From NCBI GenBank assembly GCA_040389125.1, contig JAZKAN010000006.1:1-50010 (forward strand): 50,010 bases of DNA, in the 5' to 3' direction. Positions 13,666-44,946 of the stretch are shown piece after piece. The stretch's first letter is position 1. Every line of letters begins with the position of its first letter. Under the pieces are notes generated by a model, which was not told where the DNA came from, did not search any database, and was given only the letters and a program-made list of their open reading frames with translations. The translations under genes and the position numbers were made by a program. Source of the DNA: Patescibacteria group bacterium (GTDB taxonomy: Bacteria; Patescibacteriota; Minisyncoccia; Phycocordibacterales; DATDWN01).

Positions 13666-13809
13666 TGTGCCGGAGGAGGGAATCTTGACTACATTTTTTG
13701 CTCGTCGTCACTCACAAAAAATCTAGTCGGCGGATTTTCGACATCGCGTGTTCGCGACGTAAACCGAAAATCCGTTCAAGCCCCTCCCACAAAGCTTCGC
13801 TTTGTTTCC
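13666..13809 (-). repeat. tRNA-3'-derived structured element (direct plus inverted copy of the tRNA-Leu 3' end)
   Basis: TGTGCCGGAGGAGGGA at 13666-13681 and 13810-13825; GTTCAAGCCCCTCC 13774-13787 is inverted (13/14) to 13819-13832; two internal hairpins. Confidence 0.85.
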
Positions 13810-13811
13810 TG

Positions 13812-13895
13812 TGCCGGAGGAGGGACTTGAACCCTCACGAGCTTGCGCCCACAGCATTTTGAGTGCTGCATGTTTACCAATTACATCACTCCGGC
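13812..13895 (-). tRNA. tRNA-Leu(CAA)
   Basis: Reverse complement GCCGGAG...CAGCA-CTCAAAA-TGCTG...GGTTCAAGTCCCTC-CTCCGGC-A. Confidence 0.95.
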
Positions 13896-13975
13896 AATTC
13901 ATCAAATCCTATCCTCTTTTTCCAAAAAAATCAATTTTGTGATAAAATTCGGTCATACTTTTTATATGATATTTT

Positions 13976-41042: not shown

Positions 41043-44000
41043 ATGAAAACAAAAATAAATGAAAGTTCAAACGATTTCGAGACTATCTCACTCAAACTTG
41101 CGTCACCGCAGAGAATCCAGGAGTGGTCTTTTGGCGAGGTAACAAAACCTGAGACAATCAACTATCGAACTCAGCGGAGTGAAAAAAATGGTCTCTTTGA
41201 TGAAAAAATATTCGGTCCAGACAAGGATTACGAATGTTACTGTGGAAAATATCGAGGAATCAGATACAAGGGAATTGTGTGTGAAAAATGTGGAGTGGAA
41301 ATCACTCGATCTATAGTTCGACGTGAACGAATGGGCCATATTGAACTTGCTACACCCGTGTCACATATTTGGTTTTTGAAATCAATGCCATCTCGTATCA
41401 GTTTGGTGCTAGGTATTCCTACGGGAGACATTGAAAAAGTAGTATATTTTGCTGGATATATCGTAACTAAAGTTTCTGAGGAGGATCGAACACGATATTT
41501 AAAGGATCTCGATTCCGAATACAAAGCAAAAGTTAAATCTCTCCAAGATGAGAAGACAAAAGAAGCCGTCAAAGAAATGCTTTTAACAGCAAAACGAGAA
41601 ATTGAATCAATTCAGGAGGGTAAGGTTTTGGATGAGGTTGAATACCACAACTTTTCAATGAAGTACGGTACGATGTTCGAGGCTGGAATCGGTGCAGAGG
41701 CAATTTATAATATATTCAAGAAAATTGATCTCAAATTGCTTTTGGCGCAGCTCAATACTGAACTCGAAAAATCAAGTGCAGTCGAAGCTGTAAAAGTAAA
41801 TAAACGAATCAGTACGATCTCCGCTATGCTCATTTCTGAGATACGACCAGAGTGGATGTTTCTAACACACATTCCAGTCTTGCCACCAGCACTTCGTCCT
41901 ATGGTTCCACTCGATGGCGGACGATACGCAACATCAGACGTGAACGACCTCTACCGACGTGTAATAAACCGAAACAATCGTTTGAAGAAACTAAAGGAAA
42001 TTCATGCTCCAGATGTTATTTTGCGAAACGAAAAACGAATTCTGCAGGAGGCGGTGGATGCTCTCATCGACAACTCGATAAGGCATGGATCAGCGTCTGG
42101 TGCGGTAAACCAGTCACAGCGTAGACCACTCAAATCAATTGCAGACAACCTAAAGGGCAAGCGTGGTATTTTCCGTCAGAACCTCCTCGGTAAACGTGTG
42201 GACTACTCTGGACGATCAGTTATCGTTGTGGGACCGGATCTGAAACTCTCACAGTGTGGACTTCCAAAACATATGGCACTTGAACTTTTCAAACCATTTG
42301 TTATCTCACAGCTTTTGCAAAAAGAATTCGCGTACAACATTCGTGGCGCATCAAAACTTATCGAAGATGGAATTCCAGAGGTATGGGCGATTCTCGAAGA
42401 CGTCATTCGCGATCGATATGTGTTACTTAACCGTGCACCTACTCTTCACCGACTTGGTATTCAGGCATTCCAGCCTATCCTTATCGAAGGTAACGCGATC
42501 CAGCTTCACCCACTCGTATGTTCTGCATTCAACGCGGACTTCGACGGTGACCAGATGGCAGTGCACGTACCACTTTCTGACGAAGCTCAGCTCGAGGCCA
42601 AGGAAATCATGGCATCTGACAAAAACATTTTGAAACCTGGATCCGGAGATCCAACAGTATCACTTAAAATGCTTGATATCGTACTCGGATGTTACTGGAT
42701 GACAAAAGAAATCACTGGTGAAAAGGGTGAGGGCAAAATGTTCTCATCTCCAAACAGTGCAATCACTGCATATGATTTTGGTGCAATTTCATTCCGATCC
42801 AAAATCAAGGTTATGCCGACACCATCAGAAAAATACGCACACTTTAATGGCAACATGTTCGAGACGACAGTCGGAAGACTTCTCTTTAACTCTGTTCTTC
42901 CAAAAGACTATCCATTTATAAATGGTGAAATCGATCGAAAGAAAATTTCTGCAATGGTTGACGATCTTATCGAAAAATACGGTGTTGAAGGAGTTCCAAA
43001 AATTATCGACAAGATAAAGGCATTTGGATTCAACTACGCAACTCACTCTGGGGTTACATGGGGTATTGACGATATTTTGATTCCAGAAGGTAAAAAAGGA
43101 ATTGTTGAAAAGGCAAAGGGAAAGGCAGATCTCATCTTGGAGCACTTTAATAACGGACTCATTTCAAAAGAGGAGCGACTACGACAGGTGGTTGAAGTAT
43201 GGCACGGCGCAAAAGCAGAGGTTGAAAAACTAATGCCTGGTACACTTCCAAAAAATGGATCAGTAGCGGACATGGTGCTCTCTGGTGCGCGAGGTTCGAT
43301 GGGTAACATTACTATCATGGCGGGTATGAAAGGACTTATTTCAAGTACGACAGGAGAGACTATTGAGTTTCCAATTCTTTCAAACTCAAAGGAGGGTCTT
43401 ACACCACTTGAATATTTCATCACTACTCACGGATCACGAAAGGGTATGACAGACATTGCACTCAACACTGCAAAGGCAGGATACCTCACTCGAAAACTTT
43501 TCGTTGTGGCACAGGATACTATTATTACAGAGGAAGACTGTGGAACAAAAGAGGGAACAACTATCGACAAACATGCGACTGCTGGTATTGAAGTTTCAAT
43601 TGCAAAACATATCCGTGGCCGATTCCTCGCTCAGGATGTAGTCAAAAAGGATGGAACTGTTTTGTTTAAAAAGGATCACGTCGTGACTAAAAAGGATGCG
43701 CAATTCATCGAATCAGAAGGTGTGGAAACTGTTGTCGTGCGATCACCGCTCACATGTAAAACATACAACGGTATTTGCGTAAAATGTTATGGCGTGGATT
43801 TGGGTAAAAACAAAATTGTTGAACTCGGTGAAGCGGTGGGAACTGTTGCAGGACAGGCTATTGGTGAACCAGGAACACAACTCTCGATGAACACAAAACA
43901 TGCGGCAGGTACTGCATCAGTTGGCGGAGATATTATTCAGGGTCTCCCACGCGTTGAGGAACTTTTCGAAAAACGAAAACCAAAAAACCCAGCTGTTGTG

Positions 44001-44714
44001 TGTTCAGTTTCTGGAACAGTCACAGACATCCGAATTACAAACAAAGAAAAGGTGATTGTTGTAACACCGAGCCTTGAAGACAGATCAAAAACAAAAGATC
44101 AGATCGAGTATTCAATCTCACTCAACCGAACGATTTTCGTTAAAATCGGAGACGAGGTAAAGAAAGGAGATATTATTACAGACGGTTCTGCTGATGTTGA
44201 TGAACTCTTCAAATATGCCGGCAAAGACAAAACTATTGACTATATTATTCGAGAGGTCAACCGACCATACGAACTCCAGGGAGAGACAGTGTCACGAAAA
44301 CACATCGAGACTATTGTTCGACAAATGTTTTCTCGAAAGCGAGTTAGAGAACCAGGAGATACTGTATTTTCTGTCGGGGACGTTGTGGAAAGTGCGTTTA
44401 TTGCAGAGGAAAATATGCGTGTCAAGGCGCTCGGACTAACTGAGGCAAAAGCAGAGGGAGTTGTGATGGGTATTACAGATGTGTCACTCTCACGCAAGAG
44501 TTTCCTTGCTGCCGCATCGTTCCAGCACACTACACGTATGCTTATCTCGAGTTCAATCCGAGGTAATAATGACGAGCTTGCAGGACTCATGGAAAACGTT
44601 ATTTTGGGTCGCCTCATCCCAGCAGGTACAGGATTTAAGGGAAGTCGCAAGGCAGGTATGATTGCAGAAATGAAGGCGAATCGCCCAGAACCTCAGTACG
44701 ATCAGAATTACTAG
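41043..44714 (+). CDS. rpoC: RNA polymerase beta' subunit
   Basis: NADFDGD catalytic motif, N-terminal zinc finger, LLGKRVDYSGRSVI. Confidence 0.98.
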   Translation: MKTKINESSNDFETISLKLASPQRIQEWSFGEVTKPETINYRTQRSEKNGLFDEKIFGPDKDYECYCGKYRGIRYKGIVCEKCGVEITRSIVRRERMGHIELATPVSHIWFLKSMPSRISLVLGIPTGDIEKVVYFAGYIVTKVSEEDRTRYLKDLDSEYKAKVKSLQDEKTKEAVKEMLLTAKREIESIQEGKVLDEVEYHNFSMKYGTMFEAGIGAEAIYNIFKKIDLKLLLAQLNTELEKSSAVEAVKVNKRISTISAMLISEIRPEWMFLTHIPVLPPALRPMVPLDGGRYATSDVNDLYRRVINRNNRLKKLKEIHAPDVILRNEKRILQEAVDALIDNSIRHGSASGAVNQSQRRPLKSIADNLKGKRGIFRQNLLGKRVDYSGRSVIVVGPDLKLSQCGLPKHMALELFKPFVISQLLQKEFAYNIRGASKLIEDGIPEVWAILEDVIRDRYVLLNRAPTLHRLGIQAFQPILIEGNAIQLHPLVCSAFNADFDGDQMAVHVPLSDEAQLEAKEIMASDKNILKPGSGDPTVSLKMLDIVLGCYWMTKEITGEKGEGKMFSSPNSAITAYDFGAISFRSKIKVMPTPSEKYAHFNGNMFETTVGRLLFNSVLPKDYPFINGEIDRKKISAMVDDLIEKYGVEGVPKIIDKIKAFGFNYATHSGVTWGIDDILIPEGKKGIVEKAKGKADLILEHFNNGLISKEERLRQVVEVWHGAKAEVEKLMPGTLPKNGSVADMVLSGARGSMGNITIMAGMKGLISSTTGETIEFPILSNSKEGLTPLEYFITTHGSRKGMTDIALNTAKAGYLTRKLFVVAQDTIITEEDCGTKEGTTIDKHATAGIEVSIAKHIRGRFLAQDVVKKDGTVLFKKDHVVTKKDAQFIESEGVETVVVRSPLTCKTYNGICVKCYGVDLGKNKIVELGEAVGTVAGQAIGEPGTQLSMNTKHAAGTASVGGDIIQGLPRVEELFEKRKPKNPAVVCSVSGTVTDIRITNKEKVIVVTPSLEDRSKTKDQIEYSISLNRTIFVKIGDEVKKGDIITDGSADVDELFKYAGKDKTIDYIIREVNRPYELQGETVSRKHIETIVRQMFSRKRVREPGDTVFSVGDVVESAFIAEENMRVKALGLTEAKAEGVVMGITDVSLSRKSFLAAASFQHTTRMLISSSIRGNNDELAGLMENVILGRLIPAGTGFKGSRKAGMIAEMKANRPEPQYDQNY

Positions 44715-44725
44715 TTCTTTCAAAT

Positions 44726-44946
44726 ACTAATTCTCTCACTAAGTTATTTTTGAGCACGCATAAAGTTTTGGTAAACTTTTGCTCTCGCTCGAAGATCAAG
44801 AAAACAATCAGCTCAATTCATAGCCTTCCCACAAACTCCTCGCTGAGTACAGCTTCGTCAAACAGTGCTCCAGGCTTATTTCATCTTCGTTGTTGTTTTC
44901 TAATCTTCTCCGCAGTCTCAAAAATAATTTAGATGAGAAAATTAGT
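44726..44946 (-). repeat. Divergent three-way-junction palindromic element, copy G
   Basis: ~29-bp imperfect terminal IR; long internal stem; minus-strand GCA-AAAGTTT-ACCA-AAACTTT-A-TGC hairpin mirrors the family-1 hairpin. Confidence 0.7.

Follow-up and report, generated by a model that had tools for sequence, protein, structure and literature searches.

Palindromic repeats of a reduced genome that occupy both intergenic positions and in-frame positions inside protein genes have been described as Rickettsia palindromic elements (RPEs) in a review (PMC10969869). The elements reported below are likewise palindromes of about 100 to 150 bp that form several families, are dispersed in a reduced genome and have no known transposase; they too lie both in intergenic gaps and in frame inside a gene whose ORF stays open (here mnmA, in 5 of 30 relatives). 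The host differs (Patescibacteria, not Rickettsia), none of the copies in the DNA analysed lies inside a gene, and the likeness is one of description. To our knowledge, the branched covarying core, the exchange of modules and the GIY-YIG-coding relatives that we observe have no counterpart among RPEs.

Three other groups invite comparison. Bacterial MITEs and MITE-like repeats (Correia, RUP, BOX, ERIC and Nezha) are likewise short non-coding sequences present in many copies between genes; they share the inverted-repeat ends, stable folds, stop codons supplied by the ends and presence/absence polymorphism; BOX is also similar in its modular make-up. In contrast, three of the four families described here (A, B and C) have no target-site duplication, their ends are less conserved than the core, their arms covary instead of staying fixed, and the genomes richest in elements contain no DDE transposase (three DDE Pfam families tried). 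The REP/REPIN-RAYT system also consists of intergenic hairpin repeats without target duplication, and RAYT-like genes occur in the lineage, but the present elements are larger and branched, and these genes neither co-occur with them nor are flanked by them. IS200/IS605 and their palindrome-associated derivatives are comparable as very small elements, recognised via folded ends instead of simple terminal repeats, and free of target duplication. Here, however, TnpB is absent (0 of 5 genomes), Y1 genes do not track the elements, and the candidate enzyme is an 88-aa GIY-YIG domain protein; we know of no GIY-YIG protein that acts as a transposase.

Seven intergenic elements of four families

The window analysed is a stretch of 50,010 nucleotides from a Patescibacteria group bacterium whose own genome (526 kb, 71% complete) is referred to as G000. 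A sequence-only reading of the window had proposed seven intergenic elements sharing one plan, and all seven stretches are indeed predicted to form a long closing stem with internal hairpins at its inner end. Their MFE z-scores against dinucleotide shuffles (200 per element) are, in window order, -4.9, -10.0, -13.7, -8.6, -7.4, -11.3 and -8.3, and for no element was any of the 200 shuffles as stable as the real fold. The seven are copies of four repeat families, A, B, C and T, with conserved linkers and loops as had been claimed. Family A is represented at 15037-15178, 19681-19817 (minus strand) and 22413-22543, family B at 17210-17378 and 37281-37440, family C at 44726-44946 and family T at 13666-13809. 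The annotated features are:

13666..13809, plus strand: family T element, predicted fold (z -4.9), three genome copies (nhmmer), no Rfam match
13666..13681, unstranded: left copy of a perfect 16-nt direct repeat (100% identity, spacing 144 nt)
13774..13787, unstranded: inverted 14-nt copy of the tRNA T-arm (93% complementary to 13819-13832)
13811..13895, minus strand: tRNA-Leu(CAA), its 3' end duplicated (ARAGORN; Rfam tRNA 61.9 bits)
15035..15178, plus strand: family A copy A1 (R1 143 bits, z -10.0; flanking genes by Pfam)
17210..17378, plus strand: family B copy B1, predicted fold (z -13.7; R2 core 17227-17361, 144 bits)
19680..19821, minus strand: family A copy A2 (R1 144.5 bits, z -8.6)
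22407..22547, plus strand: family A copy A3 (R1 152 bits, z -7.4)
37281..37440, plus strand: family B copy B2, predicted fold (z -11.3; R2 core 37293-37428, 122 bits)
44726..44946, plus strand: family C copy (nhmmer family, z -8.3), no Rfam match, downstream of rpoC

Copy A1 occupies the entire gap between the convergent parB and relA/spoT genes, and the parB stop codon (15038-15040) lies inside its CTAA end. Copy A3 likewise occupies the serS-ftsQ gap, with the serS stop codon (22409-22411) inside its CTAA end; CTAA...TTAG termini, claimed for four copies, are present in four. B1, with a closing stem of about 32 bp, is flanked by an ORFan and by topA (its 3' end), and B2 by a phosphodiesterase-like gene and rpoB. 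The intergenic position of all seven elements stands; A2, whose distance to the canonical topA start downstream is about 38 nt, is traversed on translation by a frame open into topA. No canonical terminator or promoter signal was found at the elements.

Searches of G000 with nhmmer identified 21 copies of family A, seven of B, five of C (plus a fragment) and three of T, all intergenic; no copies were found inside genes in this genome. Among 61 related genomes, R1 (family A) matches 45, with 1 to 43 matches per genome. Within the same family it is found in 35 of 36 genomes, and in the other families of the order in 9 of 24. R2 (family B) is found in 33 of the 61, including 29 of the 36 from the same family. 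The four families are probably specific to this lineage of Patescibacteria (Paceibacteria-type genomes). At the gathering score, an Rfam 15 scan of the whole window returned only seven tRNAs, and E-value scans of 13600-22600, 37200-37800 and 44650-45000 returned only miRNA and snoRNA models far under their cut-offs (for example, 32.5 bits versus 249). Known Rfam RNAs (self-cleaving ribozymes, Y RNA-like, 6S RNA and riboswitches) were considered and rejected, with no match near the gathering score. The comparison with Rfam that had been called for thus finds the elements absent from it, and the proposal of a dispersed, multi-copy, non-coding system with conserved structure is supported.

Stems, modules and gene junctions

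In an alignment of 54 distinct family A copies from about 30 genomes, 95.8% of stem cells are paired, double changes occur at 44 of 46 pairs, and the covariation score is 0.682 compared with 0.07-0.115 for slid partners; none of 500 shuffles reached the observed values. Compensatory changes are present at 34 of 46 pairs inside G000 and, in family B, at 31 of 50 pairs. The closing stems had been described as largely unrelated in sequence from copy to copy. This is not the case for family A, whose stems carry the conserved motifs AAATCTCGTTGA and GAGAAAGAGATTT and whose paired columns show 56% identity between copies (61% in helix 1, 36% in helix 2 and 58% in helix 3), compared with 78% for the unpaired core columns of the same 54 copies. 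Only the outermost few bp (the outermost 2-10 bp vary from copy to copy) and the 4-bp middle helix look copy-specific. On the modelled strand, G-U pairs outnumber A-C mismatches (62 versus 20), and the core hairpins P4-P6 contain one G-U in about 930 cells. An element upstream of mnmA in one relative (G020) has a family B core within A-type outer arms, and a C-like module lies in the loop of long variants of family A. Arms and branched cores are exchangeable modules, in which the sequence drifts and the pairing is kept.

The serS-ftsQ junction, occupied by A3 in the window, is syntenic in all 30 genomes compared. The intergenic distance is at most 21 nt in 22 of them; family A is present in G000 only and in none of the 29 others, and seven other genomes carry different inserts of 58-172 nt. 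At a second junction, which holds a family A copy in G028 (genus g7), the flank matches are separated by at most 29 nt in 9 of 13 congeners, and the flanks of the G028 copy outside the stem are not complementary. The region after rpoC contains different palindromic inserts in different genomes. The nearest genomes compared belong to other species or genera, at which distance exact insertion junctions are not readable; they show neither a transposition event nor a recent insertion, and no empty-site allele was found in the reads of the source metagenome. Conserved gene junctions are occupied in some genomes and empty in others, in keeping with the suggestion of non-autonomous mobile DNA. The companion suggestion, that the arms are rewritten from the target, is unsupported, because the empty serS-ftsQ junctions have no room for arms; both arms are also missing from the empty g7 sites, and arms of copies at unrelated loci are akin (shared motifs, 56% identity). 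Each element probably brings arms of its own instead of having them built from the target.

On fixed presence, named beforehand as an argument against mobility, the picture is mixed: most sites are polymorphic, but one just upstream of mnmA holds an element in 4 of 30 genomes, which belong to four genera, always in the same orientation. Occupation of this site in four genera, and a core conserved (78%) across an order-level clade, would also fit an RNA useful to the host. A site in the interior of mnmA, an essential gene, carries an R1-positive element in frame in 5 of 30 genomes (G007, G004, G018, G013 and G015). These inserts are of 117-129 nt, all multiples of three, with a single open frame kept and the R1 match inside the ORF; three are sense and two antisense, and two further genomes have other, 57-nt palindromes at the same site. 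Family A as a whole shows no orientation bias relative to flanking genes in tandem contexts (17 co-oriented, 13 anti-oriented).

Target-site duplications were not found at families A, B and C, where the longest common flank word averages 6.4 nt compared with 5.8 nt for mismatched flank pairs. Their absence everywhere except at the tRNA copy, as originally noted, holds for these three families; direct repeats (12-19 nt) are confined to family T. The T element of the window, with two internal hairpins and a small third, adjoins tRNA-Leu(CAA). The right copy of its 16-nt direct repeat (13810-13825) is the 3' end of the tRNA gene, and the inverted 14-nt copy of the T-arm forms one arm of its closing stem, so that the direct and inverted copies of the tRNA 3' end reported from the sequence are both confirmed. 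The remaining two T copies in the genome are also bracketed by direct repeats (18/19 nt and 11/12 nt).

Enzyme genes and the GIY-YIG elements of relatives

The window contains no cognate enzyme gene, as had been stated, and the search of other genomes for a co-occurring HUH/Y1, GIY-YIG, IS110 or RT gene revealed no enzyme that tracks families A and B. The DDE search covered three Pfam families in five genomes; PF01609 and PF13358 gave no match, and PF00665 matched only G000 (a 1-kb contig, C8) and G002. PF07282 (TnpB) was absent from all five and PF01548 (IS110) gave no match above cut-off. An IS110-type bridge-RNA element or a retroelement was rejected: the five genomes have no IS110 recombinase, and RVT_1 (reverse transcriptase) matches only G009 and G013. 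Y1_Tnp ORFs of 215-240 aa, which match the REP-associated tyrosine transposase model below its cut-off, occur in part of the lineage (see below). G028, with 11 A and 10 B matches, yielded no Y1, RT, small GIY-YIG or DDE gene, and no small GIY-YIG gene was found in G009 (43 A matches) or G013 (32). No DDE, Y1, TnpB, IS110 or RT gene tracks the elements consistently.

Relatives do contain 306-bp elements in which perfect inverted repeats surround the gene for an 88-aa GIY-YIG nuclease, together with many short copies that have the same ends. The ORF consists of nothing but a GIY-YIG domain (Pfam E 2e-15), and its closest solved relatives are the UPF0213 proteins BH0048 and EF2693. Inverted repeats of 12-41 nt bracket 15 of the 31 GIY-YIG ORF entries, which come from 30 loci. 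Six close copies of the element, with identical ends, lie at loci with unrelated flanks; some copies adjoin tRNA genes, and in two elements next to tRNA-Ala the tRNA 5' end forms part of the inverted repeats. Two genomes have 58 and 46 occurrences of the end motif, most of them in inverted pairs with a spacing of about 120 or about 55 nt, and at least four hits are found in all six genomes with a close GIY-YIG homologue compared with 6 of 57 without (a count that ignores relatedness).

Free-standing GIY-YIG homing endonucleases and UPF0213 (YhbQ-like) proteins offer a further parallel, with a bare GIY-YIG ORF that here also lies beside tRNA genes in some copies. A homing endonuclease possesses a DNA-binding domain and targets a single allelic site, whereas the GIY-YIG element is found at six unrelated loci and its ends up to 58 times per genome. 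We know of no homing endonuclease within perfect 20-25-bp inverted repeats or with short non-coding progeny having the same ends.

What links families A-C to these GIY-YIG elements is suggestive only, and consists of the common architecture (perfect long arms, exchangeable interior), a short arm motif and one insertion junction: the arm word TAAATCTCGTT occurs both in the GIY-YIG element of G067 and in the family A copy that G028 carries at that junction. The link finds no statistical support in G000. In G000 the CCGCACACTAA-type terminal motif is absent at up to one mismatch, and at two mismatches hits are no more numerous than for the reversed control. The best local match of the G067 end in G000 lies off the A, B and C ends. 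None of 19 GIY-motif loci has an A or B core between GIY-type ends.

Probable origin and mobility of the elements

We consider that families A, B, C and T are probably small, palindromic, non-coding mobile DNA elements that bring their own arms, are RPE- or MITE-like and are specific to this lineage. They could instead be multi-copy structured RNA genes or cis-elements that serve the host (in processing, stability, termination or protein binding), with the fold kept by selection on RNA. The very strong covariation of families A and B, the 78% conservation of unpaired core bases, the excess of G-U over A-C mismatches on the modelled strand, the persistence of the families over a family-to-order-level clade and the constant orientation at the mnmA-upstream site in four genera would all fit such an RNA. 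This explanation is nevertheless unlikely: family A has no orientation bias, elements are present or absent at conserved junctions, the in-frame mnmA copies run in both orientations, a single G-U in about 930 cells of P4-P6 is unusual for drifting RNA helices, and the elements lack canonical terminator and promoter signals. An origin as REPIN-like doublets mobilised by the RAYT-like Y1 transposases of the lineage appears improbable. Such enzymes recognise hairpins and Y1 transposition leaves no target duplication, and Y1_Tnp ORFs are present in 34 of 61 relatives, six of them in G009, the genome richest in A matches; but only 20 of the 36 genomes of the family have Y1 compared with 35 for family A, genomes with 26, 17 and 14 A matches have none while some A-free genomes do, the 2 kb around each of seven Y1 ORFs are free of A, B, C and T elements, and no Y1 gene was found in G000 (71% complete).

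Two further explanations assign the stems to the insertion site. Conserved cores may have inserted into the loops of hairpins already present at each locus (for example, terminators), leaving stems of host sequence. The nesting of a B core in A arms and of a C-like module in an A loop has this form, and therefore suggests loops as favoured landing sites; yet the empty junctions, seen at genus and family distance, are too short and have no hairpin, and stem motifs are common to different loci, which makes this origin very improbable. We give the least credence to the model of the sequence-only reading, in which insertion itself generates the closing stem as a copy of target sequence (through template switching or a guide-like step), and for families A and B it is close to refuted. 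The arms of the tRNA copy are copies of the tRNA 3' end, the inverted repeats of the two tRNA-Ala GIY-YIG elements take in the tRNA 5' end, and the outermost 2-10 bp of A stems are copy-specific, all as this model would have it. The tRNA cases, however, are what an element specialised on a tRNA gene would give by ordinarily regenerating the end of that gene, and the short, hairpin-free empty sites, the motifs shared by arms at unrelated loci and the non-complementary G028 flanks beyond the stem all speak against it.

If families A, B, C and T are mobile DNA with arms of their own, they may move as DNA in a folded single-strand or cruciform form, recognised by shape and not by end sequence. Pairing would then be restored through selection on the fold, or else through hairpin-templated repair, with one arm copied from the other. 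The best candidate for the mobilising enzyme would be a structure-specific nuclease of the small GIY-YIG (UPF0213) type, a candidate encoded in relatives between perfect inverted repeats, in elements of the same architecture. In the genomes of this lineage the elements would insert into, or be tolerated only in, tight gene junctions, where their CTAA/TTAG ends may often supply the TAA stop codon.

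Repeat families, their fold and their closing stems

The seven elements of the window were assigned to four palindromic repeat families (A, B, C and T) using BLAST and iterated nhmmer across the entire source genome, G000 (526 kb in eight contigs, 71% complete, of which the window is contig C6). Structured palindromic repeats account for about 1% of this genome, despite the strong reduction of the tiny Patescibacteria genomes. Crude ORF calls (scripted, using longest-ORF heuristics) place every G000 copy of the four families between genes, and no genuine intragenic copy was found in this genome.

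Copies of the four repeat families in G000 and in the window
Family A: 21 copies in G000, 3 in the window
Family B: 7 copies in G000, 2 in the window
Family C: 5 copies and 1 fragment in G000, 1 in the window
Family T: 3 copies in G000, 1 in the window

The family-A copies of the window are:
15035-15178, + strand: A1, at parB/relA-spoT
19680-19821, - strand: A2, near topA
22407-22547, + strand: A3, at serS-ftsQ

A1 and A3 occupy the entire intergenic gap, and their CTAA ends contain the stop codon of parB and of serS, respectively. A2 sits in a frame that is open into topA, with the canonical topoisomerase start about 38 nt downstream. Elsewhere in the window, a 110-aa ORF (16802-17134) has itself as its sole homologue in a word-indexed search of 5.8 billion proteins at near lengths, and no Pfam family; directly upstream is a 12/12 match to the sigma-70 consensus (16749-16777; TTGACA, 17 nt, TATAAT). 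No Pfam family was found for the 62-aa ORF at 19890-20078, and an Rfam scan of 37441-37755, about 315 nt of non-coding DNA between a family-B copy and the rpoB start, gave nothing.

As the sequence-only reading had described, all seven elements fold as a long closing stem opening onto internal hairpins. The real folding energy of each is unmatched by any of 200 dinucleotide-preserving shuffles.

Minimum free energy z-scores of the seven elements
13666-13809: -4.9
15037-15178: -10.0
17210-17378: -13.7
19681-19817: -8.6
22413-22543: -7.4
37281-37440: -11.3
44726-44946: -8.3

Conservation of the structure far exceeds what chance would give. RNAalifold predicts 46 pairs across the 20 full family-A copies in G000, 34 of them with compensatory changes, and the inner hairpins contain no broken pair. 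The family-A covariance model (R1) retrieved 56 copies (54 distinct) from about 30 genomes. In the R1 alignment of these 54, which is fitted to the model and hence biased toward structure, 95.8% of stem cells hold standard pairs and both-sided changes occur at 44 of the 46 pairs; an independent MAFFT alignment of the 20 G000 copies agrees with this picture. None of 500 column shuffles reaches any of five covariation measures, and the covariation score of 0.682 falls to 0.07-0.115 once partners are shifted by 1-3 columns. In family B, 31 of the 50 predicted pairs are compensatory. The two covariance models (46 and 50 base pairs; R1 and, for family B, R2) are very well supported, their E-values being rough, and both are absent from Rfam, so that such repeats are otherwise liable to be misread as new RNA genes in genome scans. 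Rfam 15 gave no match for families A, B, C and T at the gathering level or at E up to 10; neither scan turned up anything real among known RNA families.

The closing stems had been thought to have unrelated sequences in each copy. Shared stem motifs and the 56% identity of paired stem columns among family-A copies (helix 1 61%, helix 2 36%, helix 3 58%) contradict this. Most copies of most genomes carry AAATCTCGTTGA on the 5' side of the family-A stem and GAGAAAGAGATTT on the 3' side, and the 5' arm of both family B and family C has the word TTTTCAGAGCA at its base. Identity in the family-A core is 63% for paired and 78% for unpaired columns. In family A, copy-specific sequence is confined to the middle helix (4 bp), a portion of the inner helix and the 2-10 outermost bp. 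The CTAA...TTAG ends do recur, as part of a loosely conserved outer motif.

The family-A fold could work as a single strand, that is, as RNA read from the modelled strand. The 62 G-U pairs of its stems, set against 20 A-C mismatches, favour this, 15 of the 62 coming from one column. However, the three core hairpins hold a single G-U among about 930 cells, their changes being clean Watson-Crick swaps, and family A is without orientation bias toward flanking genes (17 co-oriented, 13 anti-oriented). Family B tends to anti-orientation (3 co-oriented and 12 anti-oriented, from crude gene calls). Hairpin-templated repair of quasi-palindromes is established in E. coli, and wobble-free double changes would be expected from such a process acting on the DNA. 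A promoter and terminator scan of 13500-23000 found no terminator-like sites on the elements. By eye, there is no CUGANGA/GAAA core of a hammerhead or twister ribozyme, nor are there the complementary R''/R' boxes of an integron attC site; the elements are dispersed among core genes and not arranged as a cassette array.

Occupancy of conserved junctions and of mnmA

Families A and B are old and lineage-wide. R1 matches 45 of the 61 genomes searched, with 1 to 43 matches per genome: 35 of the 36 in the same taxonomic family and 9 of the 24 in other families of the order. R2 matches 33 of the 61 (29/36 in the taxonomic family and 3/24 outside it). Each species is represented by one genome, and relatedness makes the genomes non-independent. 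At the serS-ftsQ junction and downstream of rpoC, relatives hold additional families of AT-rich palindromic inserts whose arms are made of short repeated words (loci L053 in G020, L063 in G018, L244, L248, L258, L259 and L261). The repeat load of the lineage goes well past families A-T.

The order serS-ftsQ is conserved in all 30 genomes examined, with a spacing of at most 21 nt, measured from the most upstream start codon, in 22. Only in G000 is the junction occupied by family A; seven other genomes have inserts of 58-172 nt of different kinds, including:
G006: a B-like piece
G020 and G018: the AT-rich palindrome family
G011: an insert with ends equal to those of a GIY-YIG element

A family-A copy of another relative, G028, sits between two genes resembling MsrA and MsrB (in the relatives these names, like DnaG, are by-eye readings of translations). 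Nine of the 13 congeners in which both flanks were found have at most 29 nt between the flank matches, two have 49 and 62 nt, G016 carries a different 132-nt palindrome and G067 a 331-nt insert. Downstream of rpoC, palindromic inserts also differ by genome and some genomes are nearly without a spacer (lengths partly read by eye). This differing occupancy of conserved junctions indicates that copies come and go there.

Empty junctions have no space for arms and no hairpin. The sequence-only reading had raised the possibility that the arms are written from the target, and had named empty sites lacking both arms as the observation that decides against it. Since the empty serS-ftsQ and G028-type junctions lack both arms and the hairpin, target templating is refuted by that criterion for families A and B; insertion of cores into pre-existing hairpins is rejected on the same sites. 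The closest genomes belong to other species or genera (SerS at most 82% identical), which makes junction endpoints and any 1-3-bp duplication unreadable. Three DNA runs from a single study showed no joint of an empty site, and their contigs are broken at the repeat cores. The reported lack of target duplication holds for families A, B and C, where the longest word shared by the flanks averages 6.4 nt, compared with 5.8 nt in mismatched pairs.

Family T is flanked by direct repeats of 12-19 nt, spaced 144-170 nt apart, which bracket all three copies and are absent from families A, B and C:
Window 13666-13825: family-T copy, direct repeats of 16/16 nt
L190, G000 C3:38100-38330: family-T copy
L191, G000 C7:38500-38710: family-T copy

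In the window, the target-like repeat already recognized beside the tRNA copy is confirmed as a direct repeat at the 3' end of tRNA-Leu, and the element also contains an inverted 14-nt copy of the tRNA T-arm. The repeats at the other two loci match at 18/19 nt and 11/12 nt. We read family T as inserting at the 3' end of the tRNA and restoring that end, and not as a general arm-writing mechanism.

Searches with MnmA gave split matches inside single open frames. The distance from ATGHYA to the downstream conserved block is 90 nt in G000 and G006 and 207-219 nt in five other genomes. The extra DNA (117-129 nt) is always a multiple of three and retains the hairpin fold. R1 matches all five inserts within the ORF, three sense and two antisense. 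In 5 of 30 genomes a family-A element is therefore translated as a 39-43-residue insert in the essential enzyme MnmA:
L293 (G007): family-A insert in mnmA
L303 (G004): family-A insert in mnmA
L296 (G018): family-A insert in mnmA
L300 (G015): family-A insert in mnmA
L297 (G013): family-A insert in mnmA

Other palindromes, of 57 nt (about 19 aa), are found at the same mnmA site in L295 (G009) and L298 (G011). MnmA of G004 has three additional insertions elsewhere in the protein. Intragenic copies are rare in samples from relatives (1/33 for family A, 0/17 for family B).

R1 also matches immediately upstream of the mnmA start in G000 (C1:113888), G014, G020 and G010, always antisense to mnmA. In the first three the flanks are conserved and the copies diverge in both arms and core; that of G020 has a family-B core within A-type outer arms and internal loop. 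Long A variants carry a C-like stem inside the core loop, and a copy downstream of rpoC in G005 combines A and C parts. Arms and cores are thus modules. Either the loops of resident elements are favoured for landing, or elements are overwritten by recombination through shared parts.

Candidate enzymes and the GIY-YIG elements

We have surveyed G000 and four element-rich relatives for enzymes. TnpB, DDE_Tnp_1 and DDE_3 were not found in any of the five and no IS110 match exceeds the cut-off; rve was found only in G000 and G002, and RVT_1 only in G009 and G013. The sole DDE (rve) match of G000 lies at 200-469 of contig C8 (1,059 bases) and may be an insertion sequence that was mis-binned or collapsed. 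Of 61 genomes, 34 carry RAYT-like Y1 ORFs, up to six apiece. They encode 215-240 aa and match Y1_Tnp, the REP-associated tyrosine transposase model being matched only below its cut-off. None was found in G000 (71% complete). Within the taxonomic family Y1 is present in 20 of 36 genomes, compared with 35 of 36 for family A, and genomes with 26, 17 and 14 A matches have no Y1. No A, B, C or T element lies within 2 kb of the Y1 ORFs at the seven loci examined. Loci with such ORFs include:
L078-L084 (G009, G013): Y1 ORF loci

Searches for Y1, TnpB, IS110, RT, three DDE families and the small GIY-YIG genes as partners found none whose presence follows that of families A and B.

In G067 the 331-nt insert carries the gene for an 88-aa protein, a bare GIY-YIG domain (Pfam E 2e-15), whose closest solved relatives are the UPF0213 proteins BH0048 and EF2693. 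The element is delimited by a 23-bp inverted repeat, which directly adjoins the start codon and includes the stop codon. Homologues of the protein occur in 37 of 63 genomes of the taxonomic family. Fifteen of 31 GIY-YIG ORF rows (30 loci) are enclosed by inverted repeats of 12-41 nt, both 12-nt cases being weak, and the repeat sequence differs between GIY-YIG subfamilies. The six closest copies, from six genomes, have a common end sequence and unrelated flanks. The 306-bp form is recorded at:
L117-L122, L212-L241 (G067, G076, G078, G034, G018, G020): 306-bp elements, perfect 20-25-bp inverted repeats with an 88-aa ORF

With at most 2 mismatches allowed, the end motif of the six closest copies is present at 29+29 sites in G076 and 23+23 in G020; the reversed control gives 0-1. 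The hits are mostly inverted pairs about 120 or 55 nt apart, corresponding to non-coding elements of about 136-143 and 70 bp with the same ends and varied, covarying interiors; there is also one 236-bp deletion form. All 6 genomes with the close GIY-YIG homologue have at least four hits, as do 6 of the 57 lacking it (63 genomes; nominal Fisher p 1.4e-5, uncorrected for relatedness). Such a pattern is typical of an autonomous element accompanied by short non-autonomous progeny. Some small GIY-YIG ORFs adjoin tRNA genes (Arg/Phe, Thr, Ala; L110 and L114 in G067, L124 and L125 in G070 and G074), with a partial duplicate of the tRNA 5' end upstream; at L124 and L125 the first bases of tRNA-Ala fall within the element's inverted repeats.

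The link between the GIY-YIG elements and families A-C is weaker. It is favoured by their same build, by the arm word TAAATCTCGTT, which the family-A copy of G028 shares with the G067 element at the same junction, and by the outer ends of three G000 A copies, which loosely resemble GIY-type ends. Against it, the GIY-type end motif is absent from G000, where counts give no support relative to the reversed control, and local alignment of the 23-nt G067 end with the G000 genome gives no support for a link to the A arms. No A or B core lies between GIY-type ends in 19 loci. A small GIY-YIG gene is missing from genomes with 43, 32 and 11 A matches, and the single small GIY-YIG ORF of G000 is without good repeats.

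A hairpin-transposon proposal and comparison with known repeats

It is conceivable, although we consider it unlikely, that families A, B and C and the other palindromic inserts of the lineage form the non-autonomous part of a new hairpin-transposon superfamily, recognized by shape and with re-made arms. The autonomous form would be the element of about 306 bp, in which two perfect inverted repeats of 20-25 bp flank the gene for a bare 88-aa GIY-YIG (UPF0213-type) nuclease. The nuclease would identify the extruded hairpin or cruciform from shape instead of end sequence and excise it; during repair, one arm would serve to re-make the other. Shape recognition with arm re-making would account both for near-perfect arms that differ between copies and for core-helix changes that skip G-U intermediates. 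Were this correct, no smaller autonomous transposable element would be known, and bacteria would have their first GIY-YIG transposase.

Among described systems, the elements come nearest to Rickettsia palindromic elements and MITE-like repeats. Insertion in frame inside genes, as in the mnmA family-A copies, is described for the Rickettsia elements in passages of PMC10969869. In contrast to both, the elements described here have a conserved branched core, covarying arms and module exchange, are without target duplication and DDE partners, belong to a different host lineage and have coding relatives with a GIY-YIG gene. The freely accessible full-text literature searched, including passages of PMC11602168, bioRxiv 10.64898/2026.10.21.760802 and PMC10969869, yielded no description of these elements or of bacterial GIY-YIG elements bounded by inverted repeats.

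A family-to-order-level clade has structured palindromic repeats in common, at changing places. How enzyme-less palindromic repeats move has been an open question since RPEs and REPs were described, and the GIY-YIG elements of the same build provide a concrete, testable candidate for moving them. RPE-like selfish DNA, until now a Rickettsia oddity, also shapes gene junctions in free-living ultra-small bacteria and, in MnmA, even protein sequence.
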